Shown piece by piece: positions 1,987-47,999 of a stretch of DNA of 64,000 bases; position 1 is the stretch's first letter, and each line of letters opens with the position of its first letter. Origin of the DNA: an uncultured Synergistaceae bacterium (GTDB lineage Bacteria; Synergistota; Synergistia; Synergistales; 79-D21); assembly GCA_964521575.1 (NCBI GenBank), contig CAZFSR010000009.1:10055-74054 (forward strand), in the 5' to 3' direction. Position numbers and translations under genes: made by a program. The notes under the pieces were generated by a model. That model did no database searches. It was not told the DNA's origin and was given only the letters and a program-made list of their open reading frames with translations.

Positions 1987-2037
1987 TGAGACGGTTTCAA
2001 TTTCGGGTGAAAACTGGCCGGAAAAGAGGTGTGCCGG

Positions 2038-5000
2038 ATGAGGGGAACAAAAAGGATTCTTGCGGCAGGGGTGATGATCTGCTTTGTTTTTGCCGCTCCA
2101 GTCCAGGCCGTCACGGTCAACCCGGAGGGGAACACCCTCGTCAACACGACCCTGACGGGCGGAGATTGCCAGAACCTCGGAATCATCAGCACCACTTCGG
2201 ATGACCGTTACGGGATTTTCAGCCCGGGCTTCCTGCTCATCAACGGCCCGGGAGCGGCAGTGATCGAGACTTACGGGCTTCGGGCACACGGGATGTTCGC
2301 CGACGACGAATCGACGGCCTGGAACCTCATGGCGGCCGCGATCGAAACCTGGGGGGATTCGGCGCACGGCATGGTGGCCTCCGGCGACTCGTTGGCGGTC
2401 AACTGGGGGGCGGTCACGACCCACGGGGAAAACGCCTACGGGATGTTCGCGACAGGCAGTTCGGATCTTGTCAATCACGGCTCGATCGTCACGAACGGTG
2501 TGTGGGGCCTGGGCTTGAACGCGGCCTACGGGTCCAGCGCCTTCAACGACGGGTCCATCACGACGGCGAGCGACGATGCCGTGGGCATCCTGGTGACCCT
2601 AAACTCGACGGGCGAAAACGAGGGCTCGATCGCCACGAGCGGGGACCGGGCCGACGGGATGTTGGCTTCGGGAAACTCCACGATCTCGAACTCGGGCAGC
2701 ATCGCCACGAGCGGCGACTACGCCCATGGGATGACGGCGTCGGTCGGCTCCTCCGCGGACAATTCCGGTTCCATAGCGACGAGCGGTAGCTACGCGATCG
2801 GCATGTCGGCAGCCACCGGTTCTACGGCGACGAACAGTGGCACGATCACGACGGGCGGTAACGAAGCCCTCGGCATGCGTGCGGACGGCACGTCATGGAT
2901 CCGGAACGAATCAGGCGGGAGCATCGTGACCTACGGCGAGGACAGCCACGGCATGCTGGCTACGCTCGCTTCCTCCGCGGACAACGCCGGCTCCATCGAG
3001 ACGAATGGCTTGTCCGCCCTGGGCATGGCCGCAACGGCCTTCTCCTACGCGGTGAACTCCGGTTCCATCACGACCCACGGGAACGGGTCCCACGGGATGT
3101 TCGCCGATCTCGAATCCATGATTTCCAACCTCGGTGCCGATTCCATCGTGACCTGGGGCGACAGGGCGTACGGCATGTTCGCCAAGGGCTATTCAAGTGC
3201 AGACAACTCCGGGGCTATCACGACGTACGGGGAAGATTCATTCGGCATGGCGGTCGAGGACCACTCACACGCGACCAATACCGGGACGATCCAGACCTGG
3301 GGTGTGGGATCCCACGGCATGTCGGCCAAGGAGAGTTCCCTGGCGCTCAACGACAATGGAGGATCGATCCTGACGGCCAGCGACGATGCCGTTGGCATGC
3401 TGGCACAGACGAACTCCACGGCGATGAACGATGGTTCCATATCGACCGCGGGTCTTGGTTCGTTCGGCATGATGGCCGAAGACGGTTCGCTAATCCGTAA
3501 CCTGTATTTCGGGACGATCGAAACCACGGGCGACTGGGCCGTCGGAATGGTCGCCTCAGACGATTCCATGGCGGACAACAGCAGCGGCATTTTCACGAGC
3601 GGCCTCGGGGCCCACGGAATCCTGGTCCTGGCGGGTTCGGAAGCCTCTAGTTCGGGGCTGGTCGTGACAAGCGGGGACACCGCCTACGGGATCGCCGCGC
3701 AGGAAGATTCCTCCGCCACGAATTCTGCGATGGGGGAGATCCAAACCCACGGTTTGGGGGCTTACGGCATGGCCGCGGTGATTTCCTCCGATGTCCTTAA
3801 CCTTGGCTCGATCACGACCCAGGGGAACGGGGCCTACGGTATGGCCGCCTTATCCCACTCGACGGCGGACAACCGGGGAAGCATCGTCACGAGTGGGGAC
3901 GGTGCTTACGGCATGTACGGGGAAAACGGCTCGGAACTTTCCAACTCGGGGACGATCGTGACCTATGGCGAGGATTCCTTCGGGATGTATGCCAACAGCG
4001 TCTCCTCAGCCGTCAACACCGGGGAAATCACGACATACGGGCTGCGCGCACGCGGCATGCAGGCCTACCTCGACTCCACGATATCCAACCTCGGTGCGGA
4101 CTCCATCGAGACCTGGGGAGAGAGCGCCTACGGGATGGCGGCGTTCGACAACTCGAGCGCGGACAACTCGGGCTCGATCACGACCCACGGGGACAAGGCC
4201 ATCGGCATGTACGCCCATATCTCCTCGTACGCCGAGAACAGCGGGTCCATCACGACCTACGGTGAGCAGGCGATGGGGATGCGGGCGGACGAAACCTCGG
4301 AACTCGAGAACACGGGAACGATCTGGACCGCCGGCGACGGGGCCCACGGCATGGAAGTGGTGGAATACAGCCAGGGCGTGAACAGCGGAACCATCACGAC
4401 CCTGGGGACGGCCGCCCATGCCGTACGGGTGGACTTCAACGGAGGCTTCACGAACAGCGGGACCCTGGACAGCCTCAACGGTTATGCGCTTCTTGCGACG
4501 AATGCAAGCCAGGTCTCCCTGCTGGACGGAACGGTGCTGGCGGGGAATCGCGACCTGGTGGGCGACGAAACGTCGAGCCTGGAGGTGGCGATGGACGGCA
4601 GCCTATCGGCCAGGGTTTCGGGTTTCGGCTCGTTCGCCAAGAACCATGCCGGGTGGATGAGGCTCGAGGGAAACTCCTGGGCCAATCACACGCAACTGAA
4701 TGGCGGAGTGCTCGAAATCGAGCATGGAGGGCAGTTTTGGACTGAAACGTACCTGCAAGACCCGGGAACGACGCTTTTCGTCTACGCCAACCCCGTCGTG
4801 CCGCTTCTGGTTTCGGCCGATGCCAACATGAGCGGAAACATGATGATCGACCTGTCGGGTGTGCCCCTGCCGGGGATCTACACCTACATCGACGCCGGAA
4901 GCTACATCGACAACTTCGACACCGAGTTCGTGAACAACTACGAGGGACTCTACGACCCCTACATGCCCCAGTGGTTCAGCGAGGGAGGCCGGGAATACTA

Positions 5001-5964
5001 CCGGGGGATGATCTCCTACGCCTTCTCGGAACAGGCCCTGGGGCTGGTTTCGGCGATCCAGGACTGGTCGCTGCTCCGGTGGGTCATGGGCAACCACCTG
5101 GCCGACGTGTCCGCCGGGCTTTATGACCTGTCCGACGGAGAGCGGCATTTCCATTTCCACGGCCTGTACGGCAAGACGGAGCGCGACCCGGCTGGGGACA
5201 GCCCGGCGGGCTTCGACGCGACCCAGTCGGGCGTCAGCCTCGGTTTCGACCAGAGGGTGAACGACCGGACCGTATGGGGGCTCTACGCCGGCTACACGAA
5301 AAACGACCTGGACATCACCCGCGTCGCCCCGGCGGCGTCGGACTGGGAGAACCAGGAGAGCTGGCATTTCGGGGGATACGTGAGCTACAGGACGGGCAAC
5401 TGGATCCTGACGGACGCCCTGACCTACCGCACCACGGACCACGAAACCTGGCGGAACCAGTTGGGCGGGGCGGCCACGGCGGACTTCGACAGCTGGTCGA
5501 TCACGAACGACTTCCGGGCGGGATACGTGATCCGGGAGATCGGGCCCGACTCGAACTGGGAGATCGTTCCGGAGATCGGGTTCAACTTCGGCCACCTGAG
5601 CCGGGACGGCTACACGGAAAAGAACGGCTTCACATACCGCGACTTCGACACCACGGTGTGGGAGAGCGTGCTGGGAGTCCGCTTCCGGGGCGAGTTCGCC
5701 AGGGATGACGGCTCCAGGTGGGTGCCCCAGCTTCGGCTTTCCTGGGTGCACCTGCTGAGCGGGGACGACGTGACGGTGGCGCAGTGGTGGGGCGGCGACT
5801 GGCACACCTACACGGAAGTGCTGGACGACGACGCCTTCGTGGTGGACCTGGGGGTTTCCCTCTTCACGGCGGGCGATGCGGAATTCTCCCTGTCCTACAA
5901 CGGCCGCTTCAGCGACAACAGCGAATCCCACGGCGCCTGGCTCAGGATCATGATGAAATTCTAG
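2038..5964 (+). CDS. autotransporter (type V) with repetitive beta-helical passenger and C-terminal beta-barrel
   Basis: Signal peptide MRGTKRILAAGVMICFVFAAPVQA; about 30 tandem repeats; C-terminal barrel-type strands (GVSLGFD, WGLYAGY, VLGVRF) ending in Phe; AGAGGTG RBS fits ATG 2038. Confidence 0.85.
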   Translation: MRGTKRILAAGVMICFVFAAPVQAVTVNPEGNTLVNTTLTGGDCQNLGIISTTSDDRYGIFSPGFLLINGPGAAVIETYGLRAHGMFADDESTAWNLMAAAIETWGDSAHGMVASGDSLAVNWGAVTTHGENAYGMFATGSSDLVNHGSIVTNGVWGLGLNAAYGSSAFNDGSITTASDDAVGILVTLNSTGENEGSIATSGDRADGMLASGNSTISNSGSIATSGDYAHGMTASVGSSADNSGSIATSGSYAIGMSAATGSTATNSGTITTGGNEALGMRADGTSWIRNESGGSIVTYGEDSHGMLATLASSADNAGSIETNGLSALGMAATAFSYAVNSGSITTHGNGSHGMFADLESMISNLGADSIVTWGDRAYGMFAKGYSSADNSGAITTYGEDSFGMAVEDHSHATNTGTIQTWGVGSHGMSAKESSLALNDNGGSILTASDDAVGMLAQTNSTAMNDGSISTAGLGSFGMMAEDGSLIRNLYFGTIETTGDWAVGMVASDDSMADNSSGIFTSGLGAHGILVLAGSEASSSGLVVTSGDTAYGIAAQEDSSATNSAMGEIQTHGLGAYGMAAVISSDVLNLGSITTQGNGAYGMAALSHSTADNRGSIVTSGDGAYGMYGENGSELSNSGTIVTYGEDSFGMYANSVSSAVNTGEITTYGLRARGMQAYLDSTISNLGADSIETWGESAYGMAAFDNSSADNSGSITTHGDKAIGMYAHISSYAENSGSITTYGEQAMGMRADETSELENTGTIWTAGDGAHGMEVVEYSQGVNSGTITTLGTAAHAVRVDFNGGFTNSGTLDSLNGYALLATNASQVSLLDGTVLAGNRDLVGDETSSLEVAMDGSLSARVSGFGSFAKNHAGWMRLEGNSWANHTQLNGGVLEIEHGGQFWTETYLQDPGTTLFVYANPVVPLLVSADANMSGNMMIDLSGVPLPGIYTYIDAGSYIDNFDTEFVNNYEGLYDPYMPQWFSEGGREYYRGMISYAFSEQALGLVSAIQDWSLLRWVMGNHLADVSAGLYDLSDGERHFHFHGLYGKTERDPAGDSPAGFDATQSGVSLGFDQRVNDRTVWGLYAGYTKNDLDITRVAPAASDWENQESWHFGGYVSYRTGNWILTDALTYRTTDHETWRNQLGGAATADFDSWSITNDFRAGYVIREIGPDSNWEIVPEIGFNFGHLSRDGYTEKNGFTYRDFDTTVWESVLGVRFRGEFARDDGSRWVPQLRLSWVHLLSGDDVTVAQWWGGDWHTYTEVLDDDAFVVDLGVSLFTAGDAEFSLSYNGRFSDNSESHGAWLRIMMKF
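2200..4440 (+). repeat. about 31 tandem ~24-aa repeats (NSGSITTxGxxAxGMxAxxxSxAx)
   Basis: Counted 31 AxGMxA-type units in the translation. Confidence 0.9.
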
Positions 5965-9105: not shown

Positions 9106-10182
9106 TTATGGAGTCAACCCTTCCCCCCCGGCATTGGGATCGCCGAAGAAGGAGCGGAGCATGGCCTCGAGGACGCGGATGGACCGGGCGTATTCGTCCA
9201 GGTCGAGGCGCTCGTCGGCGGTGTGATCGAGGCGAGAGTCGCCGGGGCCCCAGGCGGCCATGGGGCAATTCCAGGCGGCGGCGACGTTGAAGTCGGCCGT
9301 TCCTCCCTTGGCCAAAAGGCGCGGGGTGCCGCCCTGTTCCCGGACGGCGATTCTAAGGGCCCGGATCACCGGGTTGTCGCGGCCGGCGGAGTGCGCGGCC
9401 ACGGCTGAAACGAGGGCCGCGGAGATCCCTCGCGATTGCGCTTTCGTTCGGCAGAAGTCGAAGACCGTTTCGGGACGGGCCCCTAGCGGAAGGCGGATGT
9501 CCAGGTCGACGGACGCCTCCCGGCGGCCCTCTTCCGTGCCCCGCATGGAGAGGACGTTGGCTCCCGTCCGCTCGATGAGAGGCCGGGCCGGGTCATCCTC
9601 GCTTTCGATCTCCTCCAGGATGTCGGCGGCGGCCCGAAGGCATGCGGTGAGGGGGCTTGTCCCGCCGCTGCGGTGGGAACCGGTGTCCTCGGCCGTGAGG
9701 CGGACCTGCAGGTAACCCCGGTAGGCGAGGGTGATGCCGTCCGTCCCCGAGGGCTCCCCGACGATGCACGCCGCCGGGGAGTGCAGGGGAAGGCGGTGCC
9801 ATGCGCCGAGGGAGTCGGTTTCTTCCCGGACGGCCGCGACGAGGGTCAGCCGCCACTCCCTCGGCAGGTCGGCGGCTCCCCCCGCGATGGCGAAAGCGCA
9901 AAGGGGACCCCCGGCATCCACGCTTCCCCGTCCCCAGAGGGTACGCCCCTCGATTCGGACAACGGGGCCGCCGGGCACGGTGTCGATGTGCCCCAGCAGG
10001 AGGAACTCCTTTGGGCCGGTCCCTTTCGTGGCGACAACGTTGCCGACCTCGTCGATTCCCGCGGAGTCCCATCCCAGGCCGGTCAGACGGGATACAAGAA
10101 GGCTTGCCGCCTCGCCTTCACGGCCGCTTGGGCGAGGGGTGGAGACGAGGTCGAGGATCAGTTTCTCCGCCGCGTCAGGCAA
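9106..10182 (-). CDS. lysK: [LysW]-lysine/[LysW]-ornithine hydrolase (M20)
   Basis: LLGHIDTVPG, GRGSVDAGGP, REETDS, GEPSG, WGPGDSRLDHT; TTG start at 10182 overlaps the lysJ stop. Confidence 0.9.
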   Translation of the reverse strand: MPDAAEKLILDLVSTPRPSGREGEAASLLVSRLTGLGWDSAGIDEVGNVVATKGTGPKEFLLLGHIDTVPGGPVVRIEGRTLWGRGSVDAGGPLCAFAIAGGAADLPREWRLTLVAAVREETDSLGAWHRLPLHSPAACIVGEPSGTDGITLAYRGYLQVRLTAEDTGSHRSGGTSPLTACLRAAADILEEIESEDDPARPLIERTGANVLSMRGTEEGRREASVDLDIRLPLGARPETVFDFCRTKAQSRGISAALVSAVAAHSAGRDNPVIRALRIAVREQGGTPRLLAKGGTADFNVAAAWNCPMAAWGPGDSRLDHTADERLDLDEYARSIRVLEAMLRSFFGDPNAGGEGLTP

Positions 10183-11305
10183 GGTTCTCAAGCGAAAGCA
10201 CCTCTTCGAGCGTTTCGGCGGCCCGCGAGAAATGGTCCGGCTCGGCGGCAAACGACGGCAGGAAGCGGATCACGTTGGGGCCGGCAGGCAGGGCCAGTAC
10301 GCCCCGTTCCTGGAGTGCCCGGACCACGGGGGCGGACCGCCCCTCGACCTGGACTCCCACCAAAAGACCCAGTCCCCGAACGCCGCGGGTGGCCGGCGAC
10401 TCGATGGCCTCCAGGCGGGCCCGGAAGGCCTCCCCCATGGCCCGTGCCTTTTCGGGCAGCCTTTCCTCCTCCAGGATCGAGAGGGCCTCGTGCGCGACCC
10501 GGCAGACGAGGGGGTTCCCACCGTAGGTCGAACCGTGGCTTCCTTGGGGGAAATCGCCGAGGCTTCCTTTCCAGACCGTGACGCCGACGGGAAGTCCCCC
10601 TGCCACGCCCTTGGCGAGGCAGACGATATCGGCGGCGAGTCCCGACAGGGAGCTCGCCAGCATCGCCCCGCAGCGCCCGAAACCGCTCTGGACTTCGTCG
10701 GCGACGATCAGGGTCCCGGCTTTTTGGCACGCGGCGGAGATTTCGAACCCCAATGCGGGATCCAAGGGGTGGACACCCCCCTCTCCCTGGACGGGCTCGA
10801 TAAAGACCGCTGCCACGTTTTCGTCGATAGCCCCCGGCAGGTTCTCGGGGGCATGGTGTTCCACATTGAACAGCAGCGTCTGGAACGGGCGCCGGTAGTG
10901 CGGGTTGAAGGTCAGGCTGAGGGCCCCGAGCGTCCGCCCGTGGAAACCCCTTCGCAGGGCCAGGATGCGGCGCCTTTCCGGGCGGGCCACGGCGACGAGC
11001 TTCAGAGCGGCCTCGATGGCCTCCGTGCCGCTGTTGCAGAGGTAGGCCTTCCCGTCCGGCAGGAGGTTGCCGAGTTTTTCCATGAGGCTGGAGCGGAATT
11101 CGTCGTCAAAGCCCATCCCGATGGTCCAGGGACGCCCGGCGGCACCGTTTAGGGCGCTCACCAGGCGGGGATGGGTGTGCCCGAAAAGGGCCGAACCATG
11201 GGCGGTGAAAAAATCCACGTATTGCCTGCCGGCCGCGTCGGTGACGACGCCTCCGTGCCCCGAGGCAAGCGTTAAACCGCGGCTTCCGTATAGACAGCTT
11301 GGCAT
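10175..11305 (-). CDS. lysJ: [LysW]-aminoadipate/glutamate semialdehyde transaminase (class III PLP)
   Basis: NSGTEAIEAALK, GFHGRT, EPVQGEGG, DEVQSGFGR, LAKGVAGG; operon context. Confidence 0.9.
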   Translation of the reverse strand: MPSCLYGSRGLTLASGHGGVVTDAAGRQYVDFFTAHGSALFGHTHPRLVSALNGAAGRPWTIGMGFDDEFRSSLMEKLGNLLPDGKAYLCNSGTEAIEAALKLVAVARPERRRILALRRGFHGRTLGALSLTFNPHYRRPFQTLLFNVEHHAPENLPGAIDENVAAVFIEPVQGEGGVHPLDPALGFEISAACQKAGTLIVADEVQSGFGRCGAMLASSLSGLAADIVCLAKGVAGGLPVGVTVWKGSLGDFPQGSHGSTYGGNPLVCRVAHEALSILEEERLPEKARAMGEAFRARLEAIESPATRGVRGLGLLVGVQVEGRSAPVVRALQERGVLALPAGPNVIRFLPSFAAEPDHFSRAAETLEEVLSLENLA

Positions 11306-12111
11306 AGGGTCGTTCCCCTCCCTTCAAGGGCCTGTCCCAGGGGCCGGTTCACCCGGCTGTCGGCGATGCAGACCCGGTCGATCCCGCCTTCGAGAGCTTC
11401 CCGGCAGGCCAAAAGCTTCCTCTTCATGTTGCCCCGGGCCATTCCCTCGAGGCTTTCCCATTCTCCCAGGCCGGCATGCTTCACGAGGCTTCCCGGGTCC
11501 GCAGGGTCCGCGAGCAGGCCCGGGACGTTGCTGAGGATGACCAGCACATCGGCCCTCACGGCAACGGCGGCGGCAGCGGCAAGGCGGTCCCCGTCCACGT
11601 TCAGGAGCCCTGCCCCGTCCCGGTCCAGGGCCAGGGGGGGCAGAAGCGGCACGGTTTCCATGTCCCAGGCCCTTTCAAGGGCTTCGGGATCGACGGAGCG
11701 CGTGCTGCCGCTGGTGTTACCGTGGAGGATCCGCACGCGGCCGTCCTCCACGGACCTAAGGGCCTCCTTGCGGGTTCCCGAAACGGAGCCGATGAGCCCT
11801 GGGTGGAGGATCGCGGCCGGTGTGCCCCTCGTGAAGAGCTCGCAGGCCAGTGTGGCCGAAACGGAGAGGGCCGCGGCGACGAAGAGGTCCCTCTCTGCTT
11901 CGCCGAGGAAGCGGCTTCGGTAGCCGGAAGGGCTGGTCACGTACCGCGGCTGCATCCCGCAGGAACCGGCGAGGGTGTCCATGATGCCGCTGGCCCCGTG
12001 GACGAGGGCCCACCGCTCGCCCCGGGCCACCCTGTTGCAAAGGTCGTCCAGCAGGGGACGCGGGTTGTTGCCGAGGGCTCCGCCGATCTTGACGATTCCG
12101 GTGAGGCGCAT
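11272..12111 (-). CDS. lysZ: [LysW]-aminoadipate/glutamate kinase
   Basis: VKIGG, LVHGAS, GYRSR, NVDGDRLAA, GNMKRKL; operon context. Confidence 0.9.
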   Translation of the reverse strand: MRLTGIVKIGGALGNNPRPLLDDLCNRVARGERWALVHGASGIMDTLAGSCGMQPRYVTSPSGYRSRFLGEAERDLFVAAALSVSATLACELFTRGTPAAILHPGLIGSVSGTRKEALRSVEDGRVRILHGNTSGSTRSVDPEALERAWDMETVPLLPPLALDRDGAGLLNVDGDRLAAAAAVAVRADVLVILSNVPGLLADPADPGSLVKHAGLGEWESLEGMARGNMKRKLLACREALEGGIDRVCIADSRVNRPLGQALEGRGTTLCQAVYTEAAV

Positions 12112-12133
12112 ATCGATCGTCTCCTTTCCTTGC

Positions 12134-13180
12134 TCAGGCCGGGTAGACCGGCCGCATCTCGAGCCCCGCGGTCTCGGGGCATCCCAGGAGGAGGTTGGCT
12201 GCCTGGACCGCGGTCCCGGAGGCCCCCTTCAGCAGGTTGTCGATGGCGGCAACGGCGGTGAGCCGCCGGCCGTCCGGGTGGAGGGCGAACCCCACGAGGG
12301 CACGGTTGGATCCCATCACCAGGCGAGGGTCCGGAAGACGCAGGTGGGAGGGGCGGGCCGGGCAGACAAAGACGAAAGGTTCGCTCGCGTAGGCCCCGCG
12401 GTAGAGCTTCCAGAGGTCCGCTTCCCTCACCGGCTCGGCCAGCGTGACGGTGGCCACGGCCTGGACTCCCCGGACGCTTTCCACTGCCGTGACGCCCAGG
12501 GTGAGGCGGCTTTCGTCCAGGCCGGTTTCCTGGGCAACCTCGGCCAGGTGCCGATGGGCGAACGGCTCGAACATGCGAAGCGCCCGGCTTCGGTAGGGGT
12601 GATGGCTGCCCTCGGTGGCCTTGCTTCCTCCCTCCGAGGATCCCGCGCGGGCCTCGATGCGGGCATCGGCAACGATCCCCGCCCGTGCGAGGGGAGCCAG
12701 GGCCAGGATGGCGGCCGTGGCGTTGCACCCGACGCCGGAAACGAGGCGGGCGCCGCGGATCTCTTCGCGGTGCAGTTCGGGCAGGCCGTAGACGGCCTCC
12801 TGAAGCAGGGACGGGTCCGGATGGCCTCCCCCGTACCAGCGTTCGTAACGTTCGGGATCACGCAGGCGGACGTCGGCAGCGAGGTCCACGACCTTGACGC
12901 CCCGGTCCAGCCAGCTCCGGATCGCGGGGGCCGACGAACCGTGGGGCAGGGCCAGGAAGACGAGTTCCGGGTGGAGCGCCTCCGCTTCTTCTGGGGAGAT
13001 GAACGCCGCGTCCGGGAAATCGGGCCTCAGGTGCGGATGCACCGCCGCAACGGGGTGCCCGGCCTTCCCCCTGGACACGACGCCCGCCACCTCGATTGCC
13101 GGGTGCCCCGCCAGGATCCTCAACAGTTCCCCTCCGGCCATTCCGCTTCCGCCTACGACCACTACCGGGTGCCTTTGCAT
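12134..13180 (-). CDS. lysY: [LysW]-aminoadipate/glutamyl-phosphate reductase (ArgC family)
   Basis: GGSGMAG, LALPHG, YGLPEL, GVGCNAT, IDNLLKGASG; ATG 13180 has a GGAGG RBS. Confidence 0.9.
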   Translation of the reverse strand: MQRHPVVVVGGSGMAGGELLRILAGHPAIEVAGVVSRGKAGHPVAAVHPHLRPDFPDAAFISPEEAEALHPELVFLALPHGSSAPAIRSWLDRGVKVVDLAADVRLRDPERYERWYGGGHPDPSLLQEAVYGLPELHREEIRGARLVSGVGCNATAAILALAPLARAGIVADARIEARAGSSEGGSKATEGSHHPYRSRALRMFEPFAHRHLAEVAQETGLDESRLTLGVTAVESVRGVQAVATVTLAEPVREADLWKLYRGAYASEPFVFVCPARPSHLRLPDPRLVMGSNRALVGFALHPDGRRLTAVAAIDNLLKGASGTAVQAANLLLGCPETAGLEMRPVYPA

Positions 13181-13205
13181 GAAGTCCTTCCTCCGTTTCA
13201 AGGGT

Positions 13206-13238
13206 AAAAAAATGGCCCGCGGAATTTTCCCGCGGGCC
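13206..13238 (-). terminator. intra-operon terminator-like hairpin between lysX and lysY
   Basis: Minus strand GGCCCGCGG-7 nt-CCGCGGGCC-A-T7. Confidence 0.7.
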
Positions 13239-13271
13239 TCGAGGCTTGTTCTTTCCAAGCCGCTCCGGGGG

Positions 13272-14174
13272 TTAAAGCCCCGGGCTCGAGGACCCGCATA
13301 AGGGCGCGCTGCGCTTGACGCCGCGCTTGGCGCAACGCTTTTCTCTTTTCATCAGGGCGGCACAGGCTTCGACGACCGCACCGGCGATGTCCACGCCCGT
13401 GGGTGCGCTTGAGTTCCTGAACTCGGCCCCGTCGTTCACCTCGTTCACGAGCCATCCCTGGTTCGTCAGGAACAGGTCGACGGCGATAAAGTCGCCTCCC
13501 ACGGCGTCGTGGACCCTTTCCAGGATGGCATGAAGCCCCGGTTCCATCGGCTGGTTCTCGGCCCGGCCTCCCCTGGCCGTGTTCGTAATCCAGTGGCCGC
13601 TGGTCCTCCGGATCGCGCAAAGGGGGCGCCCCTCCAGGACGAAAGCCCGCACGTCGAACCCGCCCTTCTCGACGTAGGATTGGACGTAATAGACCTGGTG
13701 AGCGGCGCCCAGGTGGGCCTTGTGCTCCACGATAGCCTCGGCGGTCTCGCGGTTGGAGGCCAGCGCGAGCAGGCGTCCCCAGCTGCCCGTTACGGGCTTG
13801 AAGACGACGGGATAGCCGAGCTGCTCAGCCGCTTCCAGGGCCGCTTCCTCGGAAAAGGCCGCCCGGAAGGCCGGCTGCGGGATGTCGGCCGCGGCAAGCG
13901 CGGCGCTCGTGGCCAGCTTGTCGCCGCAAAGCTCCATGACGGCGCTCGGGTTCACCGTCCGGGCTCCGCCGGCCTCGAGCATGCGGGCCACGGAGACGTT
14001 CTGCAGGTGCCCGATGCACCGGCACAGGAACACGTCGTTTCCGTTCGGCTCGATCCGCCAGGGCTCGGTACGGATATCCTCCAGGCTGCAGGGGATCTCC
14101 CTTGCCTCGGCTGCGGCGAAAAGCTGCTTTTCCTCGGCGCGAAGCCGGGAGTAGAGGATCCTGAGCCTACTCAC
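13272..14174 (-). CDS. lysX: LysW ligase, RimK/ATP-grasp family (LysX-type signature)
   Basis: KPVTGSWGRL, HWITNTARGG, NEVN...EFRNS; GTG start overlaps the lysW stop. Confidence 0.9.
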   Translation of the reverse strand: MSRLRILYSRLRAEEKQLFAAAEAREIPCSLEDIRTEPWRIEPNGNDVFLCRCIGHLQNVSVARMLEAGGARTVNPSAVMELCGDKLATSAALAAADIPQPAFRAAFSEEAALEAAEQLGYPVVFKPVTGSWGRLLALASNRETAEAIVEHKAHLGAAHQVYYVQSYVEKGGFDVRAFVLEGRPLCAIRRTSGHWITNTARGGRAENQPMEPGLHAILERVHDAVGGDFIAVDLFLTNQGWLVNEVNDGAEFRNSSAPTGVDIAGAVVEACAALMKREKRCAKRGVKRSAPLCGSSSPGL

Positions 14175-14340
14175 CCCAGTCCTCCTGGACCTGCGGGGCT
14201 TCCTCCGCCCTAACGGGGTCGAGGGCCACCACTTCCAACTCTGTCCCGCAATCGCCGCAGACCAGGATCTCGCCCAGGCCGCAGTTCTCCGGGAGCGCCA
14301 CCGCCGCTTCGCACACCACGCACGTCACCGTTCCTGCCAT
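14167..14340 (-). CDS. lysW: amino-group carrier protein LysW (57 aa)
   Basis: CxxC...CxxC zinc ribbon and C-terminal EDWGE; GAGGAGGAG RBS. Confidence 0.97.
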   Translation of the reverse strand: MAGTVTCVVCEAAVALPENCGLGEILVCGDCGTELEVVALDPVRAEEAPQVQEDWGE

Positions 14341-14367
14341 CTCTAACTCCTCCTCACGAATTGGAAT

Positions 14368-14640
14368 AAAAAAAGGACCCGCCCCTCCACACGTGTGAAG
14401 GGACGAGTCCTGGTAAAGACCCGCGGTACCACCCAACTTGGACGCGTCCCCCCTCAGGGGGGCGGTCCCGCTCGCGGACAGGTAACGGCTGTCCTTCACC
14501 GGGCGTCCTACTACGGGCGTGCGCCCTTTCGGAGCCTGCTCTTCGAGCCTTGGGCCTTTCGGCAGCCCGGCACCCCTCTCATCCGGTGGAGGTCCCTCGC
14601 TGTAGGGCTTGTACCCCGTCAGGCCACTCGCGTCATCGCA
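14368..14640 (-). ncRNA. T-box riboswitch (transcription attenuator) of the lysW operon
   Basis: Stem I GCGATGA start, AGCGA bulge, ATGAG distal loop, stem II AGTA/GAA, CCGTTA, T-box AAGTTGGGTGGTACCGCGG (14421-14439), then a GGAC/TC...GGGTCC-T7 terminator. Confidence 0.92.
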
Positions 14641-14706
14641 TTTTTGAAATGCTTCAGTTGAAAATGTGGTCCGTACCAAGTCGCTCATCGCGAATTGAAA
14701 TGCAGT

Positions 14707-15597
14707 TTACCGGGGGTATCCCGGATTGTCAAGCCCCAAGGCCGTGATATTCCAGGCGTATTCCAGGACCTTCCCGGCAAGGTCCAATCCTGTGGCTTCG
14801 ACGGAACCGTGAAATTCCGGCTGTCCGTTGACTTCGTTCACGGTCCACCCGTTCTCCGATTCGAACAGGTCCACGGCGAGGAAATCCCCGCCGATGGCGG
14901 TGCCCACCTTCCGCAGGAGGGCGGTCATCGCGGGGGGCATCTCGCAGCGCTCGGGCGTCGCCCCCCGTGCCGTGTTCGTGATCCAGTGCGCGCTCTTGCG
15001 CCGCATGAGGGAGACCGGCTCGCCGCCCACGAGGATCGCACGGAGGTCCGAACCGTTTTTCTCCACGTATTCCTGGATGAAAAAGACGGAGTGGGAGGGG
15101 CCCATCGCCGCCTTGTGGAAGGCGACGGCTTCGGCACCGGCGCGGTCCGTGACCTTCGCCAGGAGACGGCCCCAGCTGCCGCAGGCGGGCTTGAACACCA
15201 CCGGGTAGCCCATCGTCTCCGCGGCATCCACAGCCGCCTCGGGTGAGGCGGCCACGCGGTAGGCCGGCTGGGGGATACCCGCCGCGTCGAGGCAGGCGGC
15301 CGTGGCGATCTTGTCGCCGCAGAGGCTCATGACGGAAGAGGGATTGATCGTCTTCACGCCCCGTGATTCCAGCAGCCGGGCGAGAGCGAGGTTGTGGGTC
15401 TGCCCCACGCAGCGGCAGATCGCCACGTCGCCGGGAGCCGCGTCGAAGCCCTCCGGCCAGGCCAGGGAAGACACGTCCTTGAAGTCCGCAGGGATCCCCA
15501 GTCTCTGCGCAGCCGAGGCGAGCATCTTCTCCTCCGGCCGAAGCCGGGTGTAGGGAACGAAAAGCCTCGGTGTGCGTCGCGGGGTTGCGGACTTCAT
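14707..15597 (-). CDS. second LysW ligase paralog (ArgX-like signature)
   Basis: KPACGSWGRL, HWITNTARG, NEVNGQPEFHGS. Confidence 0.85.
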   Translation of the reverse strand: MKSATPRRTPRLFVPYTRLRPEEKMLASAAQRLGIPADFKDVSSLAWPEGFDAAPGDVAICRCVGQTHNLALARLLESRGVKTINPSSVMSLCGDKIATAACLDAAGIPQPAYRVAASPEAAVDAAETMGYPVVFKPACGSWGRLLAKVTDRAGAEAVAFHKAAMGPSHSVFFIQEYVEKNGSDLRAILVGGEPVSLMRRKSAHWITNTARGATPERCEMPPAMTALLRKVGTAIGGDFLAVDLFESENGWTVNEVNGQPEFHGSVEATGLDLAGKVLEYAWNITALGLDNPGYPR

Positions 15598-15641: not shown

Positions 15642-15670
15642 AGTGTAAACTAAAGTTTATGGCTTGTCAA
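15642..15670 (-). promoter_or_regulatory. sigma70 promoter of the second ligase, with an overlapping inverted repeat
   Basis: TTGACA-17 bp-TACACT, AT-rich UP element, and ATAAACT-TT-AGTTTAC dyad across the spacer and -10. Confidence 0.7.
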
Positions 15671-15696: not shown

Positions 15697-16752
15697 TCAA
15701 TTATGGTCCCTGGAACAAACTTGCCGGTTTTTCGGGTTCATTCTGCCGAGGGATCGGGGTACCGGCAGGTCCAGCATCGTGAGGAGCCCCGGCCGGGCCT
15801 GCATGACCAGGGGGATGGTGTTGACGGCAAGTGCGACGGTTCCGATGCCGCCGGGGATCTCCGGCTTGATCTCGAGGCGAATGTCCGGGGTCCCGAAGAT
15901 CTCGATCGTGTCTCCGGTGCGGACGCCCTCCAGGTGGGGATGGATCTGCTGGGGGTGGATCATCTCGACGACAAGGTCGCTCCCCCGGTAGCCGTAGCCG
16001 GTTTGGCGGCATCCGGCCACCATGCCCGGCTCCACGACGATTCCCTTCTCCTCGCGACGGACGGAGGAAACGATGGGTTCGCGGAACTGCTCGATGCGGT
16101 CGACGCCAAGTTCCATGGCGTCGGAAACCATGCGGATGGATTGGACGAAACCGACGTGCCCTTCGACGGTGCCTTCGGCCACACCTAGCCGGAAGGCCTC
16201 CTCCGTGAGCCCCACCCCTTGTTCGCGAAGGACCGTCGGGCCGAAGGGAGCGAGGTCGTTGACCCGGGTCACGCGAACCCGCTTCACGTCCGTGCAGGCT
16301 GCGCTCATGACGACCGGCAGCAGGTCCATGACGAACCCGGGGTTGATCCCCGTTCCCAGGACAGCGACTCCCTTTTCCTTTGCGGCGGTGTCCATCCGTG
16401 CGCAGAGTTCCGGCTCGGCAGGCCACGGGTAGGCCATCTCCTCGGCGGTGGTCATCACGGCCTTGCCGTTCTCCAGTGCCTCCATGATCCTGGGGAACAC
16501 TTCCCTTACGAGGGAAGCTGTGGCGACGACGACAAGGTCAGGGTCCGCAGCCATCGCCTCGGCGAGAGTCGCCACGACCGTAACGTGTTCCTGGGTGCAG
16601 AGCCCCGTGAATCCTGCAAGGGGTTGACCGATCTTGGCCGGGTCAGTGTCGACGGCCCCTACGACTTCCAGGGCCGCTCTTTCGCCGACGGCCCGGGCGA
16701 TCCCGGCTCCCATGGCCCCGATACCCCAGACGGCGACTTTCAGCGGCTTCAT
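15697..16752 (-). CDS. ord: 2,4-diaminopentanoate dehydrogenase (ornithine catabolism; DapB-like Rossmann N-terminus)
   Basis: VAVWGIGAMGAGIAR, TTAEEMAYP, LGTGINPGFVMD, VNDLAPFG, GHVGF, PEIPGGIGT; ATG 16752 with AAGGAG RBS. Confidence 0.8.
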   Translation of the reverse strand: MKPLKVAVWGIGAMGAGIARAVGERAALEVVGAVDTDPAKIGQPLAGFTGLCTQEHVTVVATLAEAMAADPDLVVVATASLVREVFPRIMEALENGKAVMTTAEEMAYPWPAEPELCARMDTAAKEKGVAVLGTGINPGFVMDLLPVVMSAACTDVKRVRVTRVNDLAPFGPTVLREQGVGLTEEAFRLGVAEGTVEGHVGFVQSIRMVSDAMELGVDRIEQFREPIVSSVRREEKGIVVEPGMVAGCRQTGYGYRGSDLVVEMIHPQQIHPHLEGVRTGDTIEIFGTPDIRLEIKPEIPGGIGTVALAVNTIPLVMQARPGLLTMLDLPVPRSLGRMNPKNRQVCSRDHN

Positions 16753-42846: not shown

Positions 42847-43881
42847 ATGGGTTTGAGAGAAAGGTTCCCGCGCATTGTGGCGTTCATCATGAAGATCGGG
42901 TGCCTGGCTTTTCTTTTTTCCGGTGCCCTGCCAGTGGAGGCGGCATCATCCGCTTTGACCCCCATCCGTGCGGTGGTTCTGCCCTATATTACTTTTGCGC
43001 CGTTCTTCATCGCCAAGGACGAGGGGTATTTCGAGAAGGAGGGTCTGGACGTCGAGTTTGTCAGGCTGGTCCAGCCGATGGCGGGAGTGGCCGAGGTGGC
43101 CAAAGGCAGCATCGACATGACCCAGGTTGGCACGCGTGTCGGGATATTCAACGCTATGGGCCGGGGCGCAAACCTCCGCATCGTGGCGGACAAGGGCGGC
43201 TTTGCGGGGGAAAAAACGGCAACCAGCGGATTCCTGATCCGGAAGGAATTGCTTGACGCCAAGGGCAAACCTGACTGGGAGCGGATCAAAGGGCGGAAGG
43301 TCTCCGTGGATCCCACCAGCTTCTGGGGGTTCCTCTTCGAAAAGTACCTGTCTCGAAACGGCCTGAAGATGTCGGACTTCGATATCGAGGATTTGCCTGT
43401 AACGGTTCTGCCCGGGGCTTTCGATCAAGGGAACGTGGCGATCGCCCACGTTACCGAGCCCTGGGTTACGAAAATCACCCGCGGAGGGAAGGTCGTGCTG
43501 CTCGTGGCAGACGCCAGCCTGTCGCCGAACGCGCATTTCTCGGGAATCTGTTTTGGCCCCTCCCTGCTGGAAGGGAATCCCGAGGCAGGGGAGAGGTTCA
43601 TGGTGGCCTACCTTAAGGGTGTCCGCCAGTACAACAAGGGAAAAACGGACCGGAACATCGGGATCATCGCCAGGAACACCGGCCTGGACAGCCGAAGTGT
43701 CGCCGAGTCGGCGTGGCCGGCAATTCGCAACGACGGCCAAATGGATATCTCCGGCTTTGTCGAGTTTCAGCGGTGGGCAAAGGGAAAAGGATATCTTGAT
43801 GTCGTCGTCCCTGCTGAGAAAATCTGGGATCCCCGCTTCGTCGAACAAGCTAACCGCAAGCTGGGCGGTAAGAACCCCTGA
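42847..43881 (+). CDS. ABC substrate-binding protein, NMT1/SsuA/TauA-like
   Basis: Signal peptide; APFFIAKDEGYFEKEGLDVEF, GSID, FMVAYLKG; GGGGAG RBS at ATG 42847. Confidence 0.85.
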   Translation: MGLRERFPRIVAFIMKIGCLAFLFSGALPVEAASSALTPIRAVVLPYITFAPFFIAKDEGYFEKEGLDVEFVRLVQPMAGVAEVAKGSIDMTQVGTRVGIFNAMGRGANLRIVADKGGFAGEKTATSGFLIRKELLDAKGKPDWERIKGRKVSVDPTSFWGFLFEKYLSRNGLKMSDFDIEDLPVTVLPGAFDQGNVAIAHVTEPWVTKITRGGKVVLLVADASLSPNAHFSGICFGPSLLEGNPEAGERFMVAYLKGVRQYNKGKTDRNIGIIARNTGLDSRSVAESAWPAIRNDGQMDISGFVEFQRWAKGKGYLDVVVPAEKIWDPRFVEQANRKLGGKNP

Positions 43882-43882
43882 A

Positions 43883-46429
43883 ATGGAACTCGACGCCTAT
43901 CTCTCCAGGGGCTTTTGGGAAAGATTCGTAGAGATCGCCGACCGTTTTCCCGATATCCCGGCCTGGTCGCGGGAAGGGGAGAGCCTCGCCTACGGGGAGA
44001 TCCTTTCCCGGGCGGAAGACTTGGCCGGGCAGCTGGACAAGGTTACGCACGGCATTCGCGGGCTTGTGGTCGAAGTGGAGGCGACGCTGGTTCCGGGCAG
44101 CATCGTTTCTTTCCTGGCGGTTCTCAAGGCAGGGGCCGTCATCTTACCGGTGGATCCGGCCTTTCCCCTGGATTTTCGGCAGGAGATCCGCCGGCAGGTT
44201 TCCCCCATTGCCCGCCTGGAGGCAGGCGATGGCCCGGGAGATGTCTTTTTGCGACAGGACAAAATTCACGGTCCGGAGGGACCGCCCGTTCCTTTTGCAC
44301 CCGAAGATGCGGCCGTACTTCTCTGGACCTCGGGCTCCACAGGAAAGCCGAAAGGGATTCTTCTACCCCAGCAGGCTTTCCTCCTTGATGCGTGGAACCG
44401 CGTCAGGGATTATCACGTTCGAGCCGGCGACAGGGTCGCATGGACTGCCCCGCCTGTCCTTGCGGGACCCATCGGGATGCTTTGCTTCTCTCTCCTCGGT
44501 GGTGCGACGCTCGTTCCTTTCCCCCTGAAATCGATCGATGCGGGCGCCCTTTCCGGGCTTCTCCGCAGGGAGCGGGTAAGCTACTTCAATCCCCCGGTTT
44601 CCTATTTCAGGCAGTGGATGCTTGCCGAGGACGGCAAAGGATCCTTGCCCGACTTGCGCACGGTTGTCCTAGGCGGGCAGCCCGTTAGCTGGAAGGATGT
44701 CCGTGCCGTCCAGGGGAGCCTGTCCGAAGGAGCGAAACTGGTCCACCGCTACGCGGCCTCGGAAGCGGGCTTAATCTCCCAGGCCTTTTTCGACAGGTTT
44801 CATGCTACCGAAAACGAGGGGAGCGTACCGCTGGGATTTCCTCCCATGGGGAAGCGAACGGTCATCCTCGGGGAGGACGGAGCAATCCTGCCGGATGGGG
44901 AGATAGGTGAAATCGGTGTGGTCAGCCGCCACGGGGCGCTGGGGTATTGGAAGCGCCCCGACCTGAACAGTGAACGTTTTCGAAGGCTGCCCGGCGGGGA
45001 GACCCTGTTCCTCTCCGCAGACCTGGGCCGATTGAGGCCGGACGGCCAGCTGGAATTGCTTGGCAGAAGGGACGGCCAACTGAAAATCAGGGGCTTCCGG
45101 GTAGAGCCTGCCCAGGTCGAGGTGGCCTTGAGAAGCCTGCCCGGGGTGGCGGATGCGGTCCTGCTTCCGTGGGCCCCGCCTGCTACTCCCGAAGAAAATG
45201 AGCTTGTCGCCTACGTCGAGCCTGCCAGGGGTTCAAGGCTGGCTACCGACGGGTTGAGAGCCGGCCTCCGGGAAACCCTGCCAGAGTTCATGGTCCCTTC
45301 CAGGTACGTCCTGCTGGAAGAAATGCCGAGAACCCGGAACGGCAAGCCCGATCGTACTCGGCTCCCGGACCCGGGAACCTCCCGGCCGGACCTCACGGTG
45401 CGTTTTGTCCCGCCGGAAGGCAAGACGGAGGAGAGGCTTGCAGGGTTGTGGCACGAAGTGCTGGGGATCTCTCCCATCGGGGCGGAAGACGACTTTTTTG
45501 ATCTTGGGGGGCACTCCCTTTTGGCCGTTCGCTTGTTTTCCCGCATCGAAACGGTTTTCGGCAGGGACATTCCCCTGGCAGAGATGCTCCAGGCCAGAAC
45601 CGTGAGATCCATGGCGCGCCTGCTGGAGGCCCCGAAAGGTAAAAGGGAATGGAAGTGCCTTGTCCGGATCAACGTGGTGGGAAACCGGCCCAAGGTTTTT
45701 ATCGTTCATGGGGGTGGCGGCAATGTCCTTTGTTTTGCCCGGCTTGCGGCCCGCTTGACTGACTATGACGTATACGGTTTGCAGGCTCTGGGGCTGGACC
45801 GGCGCCACCTGCCCCAGCTTTCGGTGAGGGGGATGGCGGAGAGGTATGCGGCCGAAATCCGCGAGGAGCAGCCCCACGGCCCGTTTCGGATCGTCGGCTA
45901 TTCCTTTGGCAGTATCGTGGCCTTCGAACTGGCCCTTCTCCTGCAGGCCTCGGGTGAAGAGGTGGGCTTCCTGGGCCTGCTGGACAGGGCTATGCCTGCC
46001 CGGTCGTCCGCCCCTCCCCGCGCCAATCTCGTTTCGGAACTATGGGACCGGGCGACGACCCGCCTCAAGTTCCATTTGAGGCTTAATGCAGGGCGGCTTC
46101 TGCTGGGGGCAGGCCTGCCCGTTCCGTTCATGCAAAAAATCTACAATGCCGCGAACGGCTTCATGAGCCGGGGTTATGTCCCGCCGGCGGCATTCATGGG
46201 CAACATGGCCGTCTTCCAGACGGCGGAAAGACGAAACGAAGGGATCGATCCGGCTTCGGAGAGAGGATGGGGACCGCACGTAAAGGGGGAAACCCGGGTT
46301 TATGCCGTCCCGGGGACACATCACACCCTGCTTGATGATCCTCATGTCCGGGATGTAGCCAGGGTCCTTGATGCAGCCCTTGGCGAACCTTGTTCTTGTC
46401 CCCCCGGGGGGAAGTATCCGGGAAGTTGA
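43883..46429 (+). CDS. stand-alone NRPS-like enzyme, A-PCP-TE
   Basis: A3 WTSGSTGKPKG, A8 GRRDGQLKIRGFRVE, A10 NGK, PCP FFDLGGHSL, TE GYSFGS and GTHHTL. Confidence 0.92.
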   Translation: MELDAYLSRGFWERFVEIADRFPDIPAWSREGESLAYGEILSRAEDLAGQLDKVTHGIRGLVVEVEATLVPGSIVSFLAVLKAGAVILPVDPAFPLDFRQEIRRQVSPIARLEAGDGPGDVFLRQDKIHGPEGPPVPFAPEDAAVLLWTSGSTGKPKGILLPQQAFLLDAWNRVRDYHVRAGDRVAWTAPPVLAGPIGMLCFSLLGGATLVPFPLKSIDAGALSGLLRRERVSYFNPPVSYFRQWMLAEDGKGSLPDLRTVVLGGQPVSWKDVRAVQGSLSEGAKLVHRYAASEAGLISQAFFDRFHATENEGSVPLGFPPMGKRTVILGEDGAILPDGEIGEIGVVSRHGALGYWKRPDLNSERFRRLPGGETLFLSADLGRLRPDGQLELLGRRDGQLKIRGFRVEPAQVEVALRSLPGVADAVLLPWAPPATPEENELVAYVEPARGSRLATDGLRAGLRETLPEFMVPSRYVLLEEMPRTRNGKPDRTRLPDPGTSRPDLTVRFVPPEGKTEERLAGLWHEVLGISPIGAEDDFFDLGGHSLLAVRLFSRIETVFGRDIPLAEMLQARTVRSMARLLEAPKGKREWKCLVRINVVGNRPKVFIVHGGGGNVLCFARLAARLTDYDVYGLQALGLDRRHLPQLSVRGMAERYAAEIREEQPHGPFRIVGYSFGSIVAFELALLLQASGEEVGFLGLLDRAMPARSSAPPRANLVSELWDRATTRLKFHLRLNAGRLLLGAGLPVPFMQKIYNAANGFMSRGYVPPAAFMGNMAVFQTAERRNEGIDPASERGWGPHVKGETRVYAVPGTHHTLLDDPHVRDVARVLDAALGEPCSCPPGGKYPGS

Positions 46430-46442
46430 AGGAGACTTAGGC

Positions 46443-47225
46443 ATGTTGCACTGCAGGGGGCTTTCAAAACGTTTCGAGAGCGGGAACGGTTCCGTTACCG
46501 CCCTGGAGAGGGTCGACCTCGACCTGGCCGAAGGGGAGTTCCTGTGTGTTCTGGGCCCGTCCGGCTGCGGGAAGTCCACGCTCTTGCGGTTGGTGGCCGG
46601 GATCGTTCCCCCATCGGCAGGCAGCGTCGAGTTCGTTCCGGGATGCGGGCGTCCCCCGGGACGCCCCAGGTGCGCCATGGTGTTCCAGGAACACGGCTTG
46701 TTTCCCTGGATGACGGTTCTCGAAAACACGGGCTTCGGCCTGAAGATGCAGGGATTCGCACGGAAAGAGCGGGAAGCGATGTCGATAACCGTTCTGGAAC
46801 AGGTCGGCATGGGGGCCTTCGGGCGGCATTATCCCCACGAACTGTCGATGGGCATGCGCCAGCGTGTGGCGCTGGCCCGGGCTTTTGTTTCTTCCCCCGA
46901 TGTCCTCCTGATGGATGAGCCGTTTGCATCGCTGGACGCCCAGGCAAGGGCCGTCCTCCAGCAAGACCTGATTTCCTGGCAGGAAGATCGCGGCACGCCG
47001 GTCATTTTCATTACGCATGACATCGCTGAATCCCTTGTCCTTGCGGACCGGATCCTTGTCCTTTCGGCACGGCCTGGGAGGGTTTTGGCGAGCATCCCTC
47101 TGCCTCCGGGCCGAGGCCATTCGCCGGTGGCCGGTTTTGATCCCGATCTCGGGGCGATCGGCCGGGAGATCTGGGGCATGCTGGGGCAGGAATCCTGTCC
47201 CGAGCTGCAGGGTGCGATCTTTTGA
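46443..47225 (+). CDS. ABC ATP-binding protein (TauB/SsuB-like importer)
   Basis: GPSGCGKST, VFQEHGLFPW, ELSMGMRQR, LLMDEPF, FITHD. Confidence 0.92.
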   Translation: MLHCRGLSKRFESGNGSVTALERVDLDLAEGEFLCVLGPSGCGKSTLLRLVAGIVPPSAGSVEFVPGCGRPPGRPRCAMVFQEHGLFPWMTVLENTGFGLKMQGFARKEREAMSITVLEQVGMGAFGRHYPHELSMGMRQRVALARAFVSSPDVLLMDEPFASLDAQARAVLQQDLISWQEDRGTPVIFITHDIAESLVLADRILVLSARPGRVLASIPLPPGRGHSPVAGFDPDLGAIGREIWGMLGQESCPELQGAIF

Positions 47226-47995: not shown

Positions 47996-47999
47996 GAGG

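Follow-up and report, generated by a model that had tools for sequence, protein, structure and literature searches.

A second LysX-family ligase and a predicted lysine-specific T-box leader at the LysW operon of an uncultured Synergistaceae bacterium

What might two amino acid ligases do beside a single LysW amino-group carrier protein (AmCP)? The question is raised by a 64,000-nucleotide stretch of contig CAZFSR010000009.1 (forward-strand positions 10,055 to 74,054; GenBank assembly GCA_964521575.1) from an uncultured Synergistaceae bacterium, called the window here, in which a lysW-X-Y-Z-J-K operon is preceded by a second LysX-family ATP-grasp ligase, denoted ligase 2. LysW pathways are a standard example of lysine and arginine biosynthesis diverging from one promiscuous route, and to our knowledge the only demonstrated two-ligase split is that of the Crenarchaeota. 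From the sequence we favor, with moderate confidence, a reading in which LysX loads α-aminoadipate and ligase 2 loads glutamate onto the same LysW, with LysY, LysZ, LysJ and LysK shared, and one LysW pathway would probably make both lysine and ornithine/arginine.

Two diverged ligases beside one LysW carrier

The genes lie on the minus strand and follow one another, in the direction of transcription from 15597 to 9106, as ligase 2, lysW, lysX, lysY, lysZ, lysJ and lysK. A first-pass annotation of this DNA had recognized the lysW-X-Y-Z-J-K operon and the additional upstream ligase, and we find all genes where it had placed them. Ligase 2 (14707-15597, 296 aa, a putative ArgX-like Glu–LysW ligase) contains NEVNGQPEFHGS, and LysX (13272-14174, a putative α-aminoadipate–LysW ligase) contains NEVNDGAEFRNS, both peptides exactly as first quoted; the reference motifs given alongside them, ...NEVNHTMEFKNS in Thermus LysX and ...NELNDVPEFKGF in Sulfolobus tokodaii ArgX, are also essentially right. 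LysW (14167-14340) is a 57-aa zinc ribbon with CVVC...CGDC and a C-terminal EDWGE, which scores 65.5 bits against TIGR01206 (cutoff 53.2). The downstream enzymes are all present: LysY, a [LysW]-aminoadipyl/glutamyl-phosphate reductase of the ArgC family (12134-13180; TIGR01850, 332.6 bits), in an open reading frame (ORF) of 13258-12134 with a likely start at ATG 13180; LysZ, of the [LysW]-aminoadipate kinase family (11272-12111; NF010659, 214.2 bits, just below the cutoff of 223); LysJ, an ArgD/LysJ-family aminotransferase (10175-11305; TIGR00707, 320 bits; LysJ models, 288 and 273 bits); and LysK, an M20 [LysW]-lysine/ornithine hydrolase (9106-10251; NF003367, 314 bits against a cutoff of 363; TIGR01902, 240 bits against 163). 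Their top models are LysW-pathway or arginine-homolog models, with several scores under the equivalog cutoffs. A tblastn search of the window finds a single LysW and a single YZJK set, and no extra copies of the lys genes.

The two ligases are 53% identical to one another, and the best solved-structure match of each is Thermus LysX (E values of 3e-75 and 2e-69), followed in order by Thermococcus kodakarensis LysX, S. tokodaii ArgX and, weakly, RimK. Ligase 2 scores 278.7 bits against the LysX model TIGR02144, above its cutoff of 275.6, and the window LysX falls just below at 267.8 bits. A RimK-type modifier, the alternative raised for the second ligase in the first-pass annotation, is contradicted by the RimK S6 ligase equivalog NF007764 (63.9 bits for ligase 2 and 63.2 for LysX, against a cutoff of 331), and ligase 2 falls far short of the RimK, MptN and CofF models.

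A five-residue specificity signature, at Thermus LysX positions 182, 192, 203, 258 and 259, has been defined by the Nishiyama group: F-I-T-NS in LysX, I-Y-V-GF in ArgX and Y-I-T-NA in the bifunctional T. kodakarensis enzyme, with the F182I substitution alone leading Thermus LysX to load glutamate (PMC12998189). Asn258 is missing from glutamate-specific ArgX, the residues at 258-259 being AL in Natrinema and GF in Sulfolobus (PMC10433800). Mapping these positions through PDB alignments (3vpd, 3vpb), we find that the window LysX has the exact LysX-type pocket, F-I-T-NS, and that ligase 2 has I-M-T-GS and not the ArgX I-Y-V-GF. Ligase 2 differs at 182, 192 and 258, each time in the ArgX direction: I182 and G258 are identical to ArgX, and M192 is enlarged like the tyrosine. 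The single Asn-versus-Gly signature named in the first-pass annotation is only a part of the five-residue motif, which is itself insufficient when taken alone (PMC10433800).

The same division runs through the phylum. Synergistota ligase homologs (n = 218) form two clades, A and B. Clade A, with 115 sequences including the window LysX, has F-I-T-NS throughout, bar one conservative F-V-T-NS; clade B, with 105 sequences including ligase 2, has [VI]MTG[ST], LITGS, TITSS and a few TITNS and AITNS. F182 and N258 are present in 115/115 clade A sequences, while clade B has no F182 at all and keeps Asn258 in only 5/105. Nine alignment positions separate A from B cleanly, two of which, 182 and 258, are motif positions. 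These comparisons support the view that the two ligases are functionally diverged LysX-family paralogs, and not RimK enzymes.

Ligase 2 is also maintained. Its ORF is uninterrupted and has a consensus-like promoter and ribosome-binding site, and the ratio of nonsynonymous to synonymous substitution rates (dN/dS) is 0.15-0.16 (dS up to 0.77), compared with 0.11-0.14 for lysX; ligase 2 is under purifying selection, as is lysX. Homologs of the encoded proteins place the organism in Synergistota (Synergistales). Near-identical DNA is present in wastewater, sludge and digester metagenomes, and metatranscriptome contigs from sludge reveal low-level expression of all genes, ligase 2 fragments among them.

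Separate promoters and a lysine T-box leader

The 366-nt gap between ligase 2 and lysW holds a promoter, a T-box leader and a terminator; this leader and second promoter, and a conserved hairpin between lysX and lysY described below, had escaped the first-pass annotation. Promoter scanning places promoter P1 of ligase 2 at 15642-15670 (TTGACA-17-TACACT), with the inverted repeat AACTTTAGTT in its spacer (15657-15648), and the sigma-70-like promoter P2 of the leader at 14704-14732 (TTGACA-17-TAAACT), where it overlaps the ligase 2 stop codon; P2 is conserved in the related contigs L001-L003. Since each has its own promoter, the locus comprises two transcription units, with ligase 2 outside the riboswitch.

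The T-box leader (14396-14645) matches the full length of Rfam RF00230 (model positions 1-219) with 32.9 bits. This is below the Rfam gathering score of 93, but the E value is 2e-4 and orthologous leaders score higher: one stands ahead of lysW in Thermovirga lienii (79 bits), and others do so in three more lineages (60, 55 and 54 bits). Stem I of the window leader carries a K-turn, a specifier loop, an AG bay and a distal loop, and the leader also has a T-box sequence with UGGN and a terminator/antiterminator switch. The T-box core, AAGUUGGGUGGUACCGCG, lies at 14439-14422, and the terminator (14364-14411) is a 17-bp hairpin followed by U7; the 5' arm of this hairpin and the antiterminator's 3' half overlap. 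Between P2 and the real start of Stem I (GCGATGACGCGAGTGG), an element at 14677-14692, GCGATGAGCGACTTGG, resembles a partial duplicate of the 5' end of Stem I and is likewise conserved in L001-L003. No tRNA gene was found in the window.

Which amino acid the leader senses can be read from its specifier loop, which is shortened in the window. The lower helix of Stem I pairs CGAG (14630-14627) with CUCG (14547-14544), and the specifier AAG (14551-14549) is followed by G14548. The 3' side of the loop reads C-AAG-G-CUCG in the window group, UC-AAA-G-CUCGC in L016/L018, G-AAA-G-CUCGC in L017, U-AAA-A-CCUGA in L023/L068 and C-AAA-A-CCCAU in Thermovirga (L010), so that the specifier is AAG or AAA, both lysine codons, in 5/5 Synergistota lineages. 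The helix next to the specifier is 94% paired, with compensatory changes in 4/5 pairs, and sliding the partner strand by 1-3 columns lowers whole-structure pairing from 87% to at most 43%. The register of codon, conserved purine and helix is fixed by these compensatory changes in the flanking helix. Two other readings of the specifier codon, AGG (Arg) and GGC (Gly), were considered and rejected, as they are inconsistent across the five lineages and the covariation fixes the lysine register. Because a lysine codon occurs in every lineage, the lysW operon is predicted to be induced by uncharged tRNA-Lys and is thereby marked as a lysine-supply operon; lysine-responsive expression is thus a prediction from covariation and codon identity.

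The distribution of the leader follows the ligase type. A lysine T-box stands upstream of lysW only where an F-I-T-NS ligase follows, in 5/8 clade A lineages versus 0/11 clade B lineages (Fisher p = 0.005, for lineages that are not independent), and an Rfam search finds no T-box or other riboswitch in clade B clusters. Three low-GC clade A operons without a T-box (L020, L021 and L024) share AT-rich repeats (e.g., TTGATATAAATCAA) between promoter and lysW, which may serve as a protein operator in place of the riboswitch.

A further regulatory candidate lies inside the operon. The lysX-lysY gap contains a conserved, GC-rich, terminator-like hairpin followed by U7 (13214-13238, minus strand), identified by the promoter/terminator scan and comparison with relatives; it is preceded by a conserved multi-stem structure (13214-13290, minus strand, with the hairpin), and only about 25 nt separate it from the start codon of lysY. 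An analogous hairpin and U-run are found 3' of the ligase gene in other Synergistota (L010, L012, L016, L017 and L023). The element might act as an attenuator or serve to set the ratio of carrier and ligase to the remaining enzymes.

Relatives in Synergistota and other bacteria

A bootstrapped neighbor-joining tree of the Synergistota A and B ligases, other bacterial metagenome ligases, Thermus LysX, T. kodakarensis LysX and S. tokodaii ArgX recovers Synergistota A+B as monophyletic (bootstrap 97), with support of 86 for clade B and 67 for clade A. Thermus LysX clusters with F-I-T-NS ligases of other bacteria, and T. kodakarensis LysX and S. tokodaii ArgX fall outside A+B. S. tokodaii ArgX is the most distant reference, and ligase 2 is not orthologous to archaeal ArgX. 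With clade B as the sister group of LysX from Synergistota, the A/B split is a bacterial duplication, independent of the crenarchaeal LysX/ArgX split; the likeness to the Sulfolobus pair is convergent, an analogy rather than a homology, and the Sulfolobus-like split proposed in the first-pass annotation gives way to a duplication within Synergistota.

The closest relatives of ligase 2 form a VMTGS group (bootstrap 98) that always lies 3' of a lysW gene and 5' of lysY. More generally, elsewhere in Synergistota a clade B ligase sits between its own lysW and a lysY gene, ZJK being present in some clusters and absent from others, and in several members of the phylum it is the only ligase of a complete lysW-ligase-YZJK operon. 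The promoters of clade B clusters and P1 of the window have in common TTGACA...AACTnnAGTTTAyNAT, with the inverted repeat in the spacer; the AACT-NN-AGTT repeat is found at ligase 2 and in L005, L006, L008, L011, L012, L026, L028, L030 and L032-L034, and is a candidate operator for a regulator. This shared element marks ligase 2 as an orthologue of the clade B ligases, regulatory region included, whose own lysW and lysY have in this genus been lost or come to lie apart from it. The window LysY falls outside the clade B-associated LysY group. A dedicated "ArgY" was sought in the same LysY tree and set aside: clade B LysY is monophyletic but nested within the A type, and paralogy and species phylogeny are inseparable there. 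A second, nested duplication of carrier and ligase inside clade B is seen in L006 (3368-5761) and L019 (3951-6310), which carry a tandem lysW-ligase(TITSS)-lysW-ligase(AITNC).

At least six related contigs (L001-L003, L013, L014 and L031) carry all or part of the order ligase 2, T-box, lysWXYZJK; a contig scan with a single protein gave eight loci. The gene immediately upstream of ligase 2 is ord, which encodes 2,4-diaminopentanoate dehydrogenase and stands alone (15697-16752, minus strand; NCBIfam equivalog, 455 bits), with no oraSE, ortAB or racemase gene near it. It is also found in L003 and L014 and is absent from L002, which is syntenic and has Tex right next to ligase 2.

Outside the phylum, a metagenome scan recovers a separate ligase clade (bootstrap 99) with T at position 258 (IMTTM, VMTTL, IITTA, LITTA, MITTL and FITTT). 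L052 and L089 have the order F-I-T-NS ligase, argG, argH, lysW, [IV]-M-T-T-[ML] ligase; L076 has argH, lysW, IMTTM ligase, lysY; and L092 has argG, argH, lysW, a FAAAS ligase, a FVTNS ligase and YZJK. In L055 a FMTTL ligase is followed by homocitrate synthase, which bears a fused Lrp/AsnC ligand domain, and then by aconitase, Iso_dh, an F-I-T-NS ligase and YZJK. From these neighborhoods, ligases that lack Asn258 travel with arginine genes, and F-I-T-NS ligases with the upper pathway to α-aminoadipate. The IMTTM ligase of L052 and L076 belongs to Anaerolineales by its homologs, all named examples of which are annotated LysX. It shares I-M-T at 182, 192 and 203 with ligase 2, yet the two are not close relatives; since the Anaerolineales-type ligases form a separate clade, their I/V-M-T likeness to ligase 2 is convergent. 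A two-ligase layout had been described at first as best known from Crenarchaeota, and these Anaerolineales-like contigs with their arginine-linked second ligases show that it is not unique among bacteria.

Proposed mechanism, alternatives and known systems

The sequence shows the identities of the genes, the T-box with its lysine specifier, the differences between the pockets, the phylogeny and the two promoters; we infer the substrates of both ligases, the sharing of LysW and YZJK, and the source of α-aminoadipate, and propose the following scheme. P2 would drive the lysine-specific leader, where uncharged tRNA-Lys would pair with the AAG specifier and the UGGU bulge and stabilize the antiterminator, allowing RNA polymerase to read into lysW-lysX and then, via a leaky internal hairpin, into lysY-Z-J-K. 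LysX (F-I-T-NS) would attach α-aminoadipate to the C-terminal glutamate of LysW, and LysZ, LysY, LysJ and LysK would convert the adduct to LysW-lysine and release lysine. P1 would drive ligase 2 (I-M-T-GS), which has no carrier of its own and stands outside the control of the lysine T-box; this enzyme would attach glutamate to the same LysW, and the shared ZYJK would yield ornithine for arginine synthesis. In Thermus, LysZ and LysY keep 60% and 15-20% of normal activity when given LysW-Glu (PMC12998189), which makes one LysW and one ZYJK set for both routes plausible. Glutamate loading by ligase 2 is suggested by its pocket changes, by the regulation of the locus and by the convergent arginine-linked ligases of other bacteria. 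The first-pass annotation had offered a carrier shared by both pathways or, as the other option, ornithine synthesis only: the shared carrier agrees with the one LysW/YZJK set in the window, the diverged ligases and the placement of ligase 2 outside the T-box, and ornithine alone is disfavored by the lysine T-box.

Several observations weigh against this scheme. The ligase 2 motif is a hybrid, in which T203 and S259 are LysX-like and position 259 has no bulky residue. Motif swaps did not convert Natrinema ArgX (PMC10433800), and the motif is therefore insufficient to predict specificity; for every Synergistota ligase the putative substrate is drawn from sequence. Pfam scans of about 58 further ORFs in the window find no HMGL-like/homocitrate synthase, aconitase or Iso_dh and no arg or dap gene, in line with the earlier statement that the window has no homocitrate synthase, homoaconitase or homoisocitrate dehydrogenase. 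Among the matches listed in a bulk Pfam scan, the flanks of clade B clusters have one ornithine carbamoyltransferase in 77 ORFs, and the flanks of clade A operons have no arg or α-aminoadipate pathway gene. Among 20 named proteins from Synergistaceae metagenome-assembled genomes (MAGs), no A+B pair has accession numbers close enough for one genome; most Synergistota may therefore have one ligase type, with clade B there bifunctional or lysine-serving. Finally, as lysW and YZJK lie behind a lysine T-box, ornithine synthesis would need lysine limitation, basal read-through or genes elsewhere.

Some of these points recur in the alternative that survives best, in which ligase 2 has the same or an overlapping specificity, loading α-aminoadipate or acting bifunctionally like T. 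kodakarensis LysX. Ligase 2 would then be the constitutive enzyme and LysX the starvation-induced one, and the cluster would serve lysine, or lysine and some ornithine through a promiscuous enzyme. T203, S259 and a LysX-type HWITNTARG segment are kept in ligase 2, Asn258 is kept in some clade B members (TITNS, AITNS), clade B supplies the sole ligase of complete lysW-ligase-YZJK operons in several Synergistota, and the sampled MAG proteins give no A+B pair from one genome. We nevertheless judge this alternative unlikely: the separation of the clades at F182 and N258 is nearly complete, the lysine T-box is never on clade B clusters, I-M-T pockets have arisen convergently beside argGH in other bacteria, and two ligases of identical specificity under purifying selection would need a special explanation.

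AmCP ligases load other amino acids in Streptomyces secondary metabolism, and ligase 2 might similarly act outside the LysW pathway, as a RimK-like protein modifier or with another amino acid for a specialized product. The lack of an adjoining lysW of its own, the separate promoter, the neighboring ord gene and a nonribosomal peptide synthetase (NRPS)-like gene with a phosphopantetheinyl transferase about 28 kb away in the window fit such a role, which we nonetheless consider improbable: ligase 2 passes the LysX equivalog cutoff and fails RimK, MptN and CofF widely, its VMTGS relatives always lie between lysW and lysY, ord is absent from the syntenic L002, and no secondary-metabolism genes are adjacent. 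That ligase 2 was left behind, non-functional or redundant, when a clade B lysW-ligase-lysY cluster decayed, as the missing lysW and lysY of its closest relatives might suggest, is more improbable still, given its intact ORF with promoter and ribosome-binding site, a dN/dS of 0.15 over dS values up to 0.77, an arrangement kept in five or more of the related contigs, and RNA fragments that cover the gene.

The proposal that LysX and ligase 2 load different amino acids onto one LysW leads to a wider one, which we offer tentatively as a possibility: that bacterial glutamate-loading, ArgX-like ligases arose at least twice apart from archaeal ArgX, in Synergistota clade B and in the Anaerolineales type; that LysW-mediated ornithine/arginine synthesis is widespread and hidden under the name LysX; and that a tRNA-Lys T-box couples arginine precursor supply to lysine status. 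Cross-regulation of this kind, if true, would be the first described for a T-box. A split that arose independently in bacteria would show the two-ligase solution to evolve repeatedly, and would supply natural test cases for the five-residue rule (I-M-T-GS, T-I-T-SS and I-M-T-TM); it would also expose systematic mis-annotation, because all of these ligases are named LysX, and would improve predictions of amino acid auxotrophy for the Synergistota and Chloroflexota of anaerobic digesters. The lysine T-box itself offers an RNA-level read-out of the branch that an operon serves, and is a rare T-box on a carrier-protein pathway.

The remainder of the window includes other features of note. A low-GC block at ~31.7-40.3 kb (0.48-0.52 versus ~0.63) holds GDP-mannose dehydratase/epimerase genes, many glycosyltransferases, a family 11 fucosyltransferase-like enzyme included, and a MurJ-type flippase, and is probably a horizontally acquired surface-polysaccharide cluster. 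The NRPS-like gene encodes a stand-alone adenylation-thiolation-thioesterase (A-T-TE) protein of 958 aa and is followed, within 43553-48689, by ATP-binding cassette (ABC) transporter components and the 4'-phosphopantetheinyl transferase. At 2029-5964 (plus strand) lies a 1311-aa protein in which a C-terminal autotransporter beta-domain is the sole recognized domain and the passenger has no Pfam match.

The LysW pathway, the LysX/ArgX idea and T-boxes are known already. The literature searched contains no report linking a T-box to a LysW carrier, one match being an unrelated "lysW" transporter, and nothing relevant on Synergistetes and LysW; a bacterial LysW system with two ligases that evolved independently, a LysW operon preceded by a tRNA-Lys T-box, and arginine-linked, mis-annotated "LysX" paralogs appear undescribed there. 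The lysWXYZJK genes of Thermus thermophilus (LysX structures 1UC8 and 3VPD) provide the same gene set, the same EDWGE carrier tail and an identical F-I-T-NS pocket, and we know of no T-box reported on that operon. Thermus relies on a single ligase and makes arginine by a separate, classical pathway (PMC12998189), whereas the window has a second ligase and a tRNA-Lys T-box. In Sulfolobus, as summarized in PMC12998189 from Ouchi et al. 2013, LysX and ArgX act on one LysW and share LysZYJK. The window is alike in its two paralogous ligases, one carrier, one downstream set, I182 and G258; however, Sulfolobus ArgX is archaeal, has I-Y-V-GF and belongs to a system under a protein regulator, while ligase 2 is bacterial, non-orthologous, has I-M-T-GS with a putative substrate, and belongs to a system regulated by a T-box. 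T. kodakarensis LysX (5K2M) serves lysine and ornithine as one promiscuous ligase, in contrast to the two ligases of the window, neither of which has Y...NA. The haloarchaeal ArgX of Natrinema gari (PMC10433800) lacks Asn258, as does ligase 2, but works with a dedicated ArgW carrier in an arginine-only pathway, has the motif ..AL, and occurs where lysine is made via diaminopimelate (DAP).

The Anaerolineales argG-argH-lysW-ligase clusters (L052, L076 and L089) resemble the window in their I/V-M-T pockets without Asn258 and, in L052 and L089, in an additional F-I-T-NS ligase; they differ in having their own lysW, direct argGH linkage, T-M or T-L at 258-259, and no T-box core seen. Lysine-specific T-boxes (RF00230) occur on Bacillus lysyl-tRNA synthetase genes, and the window leader has the same architecture, placed here in control of a LysW carrier-protein biosynthetic operon.

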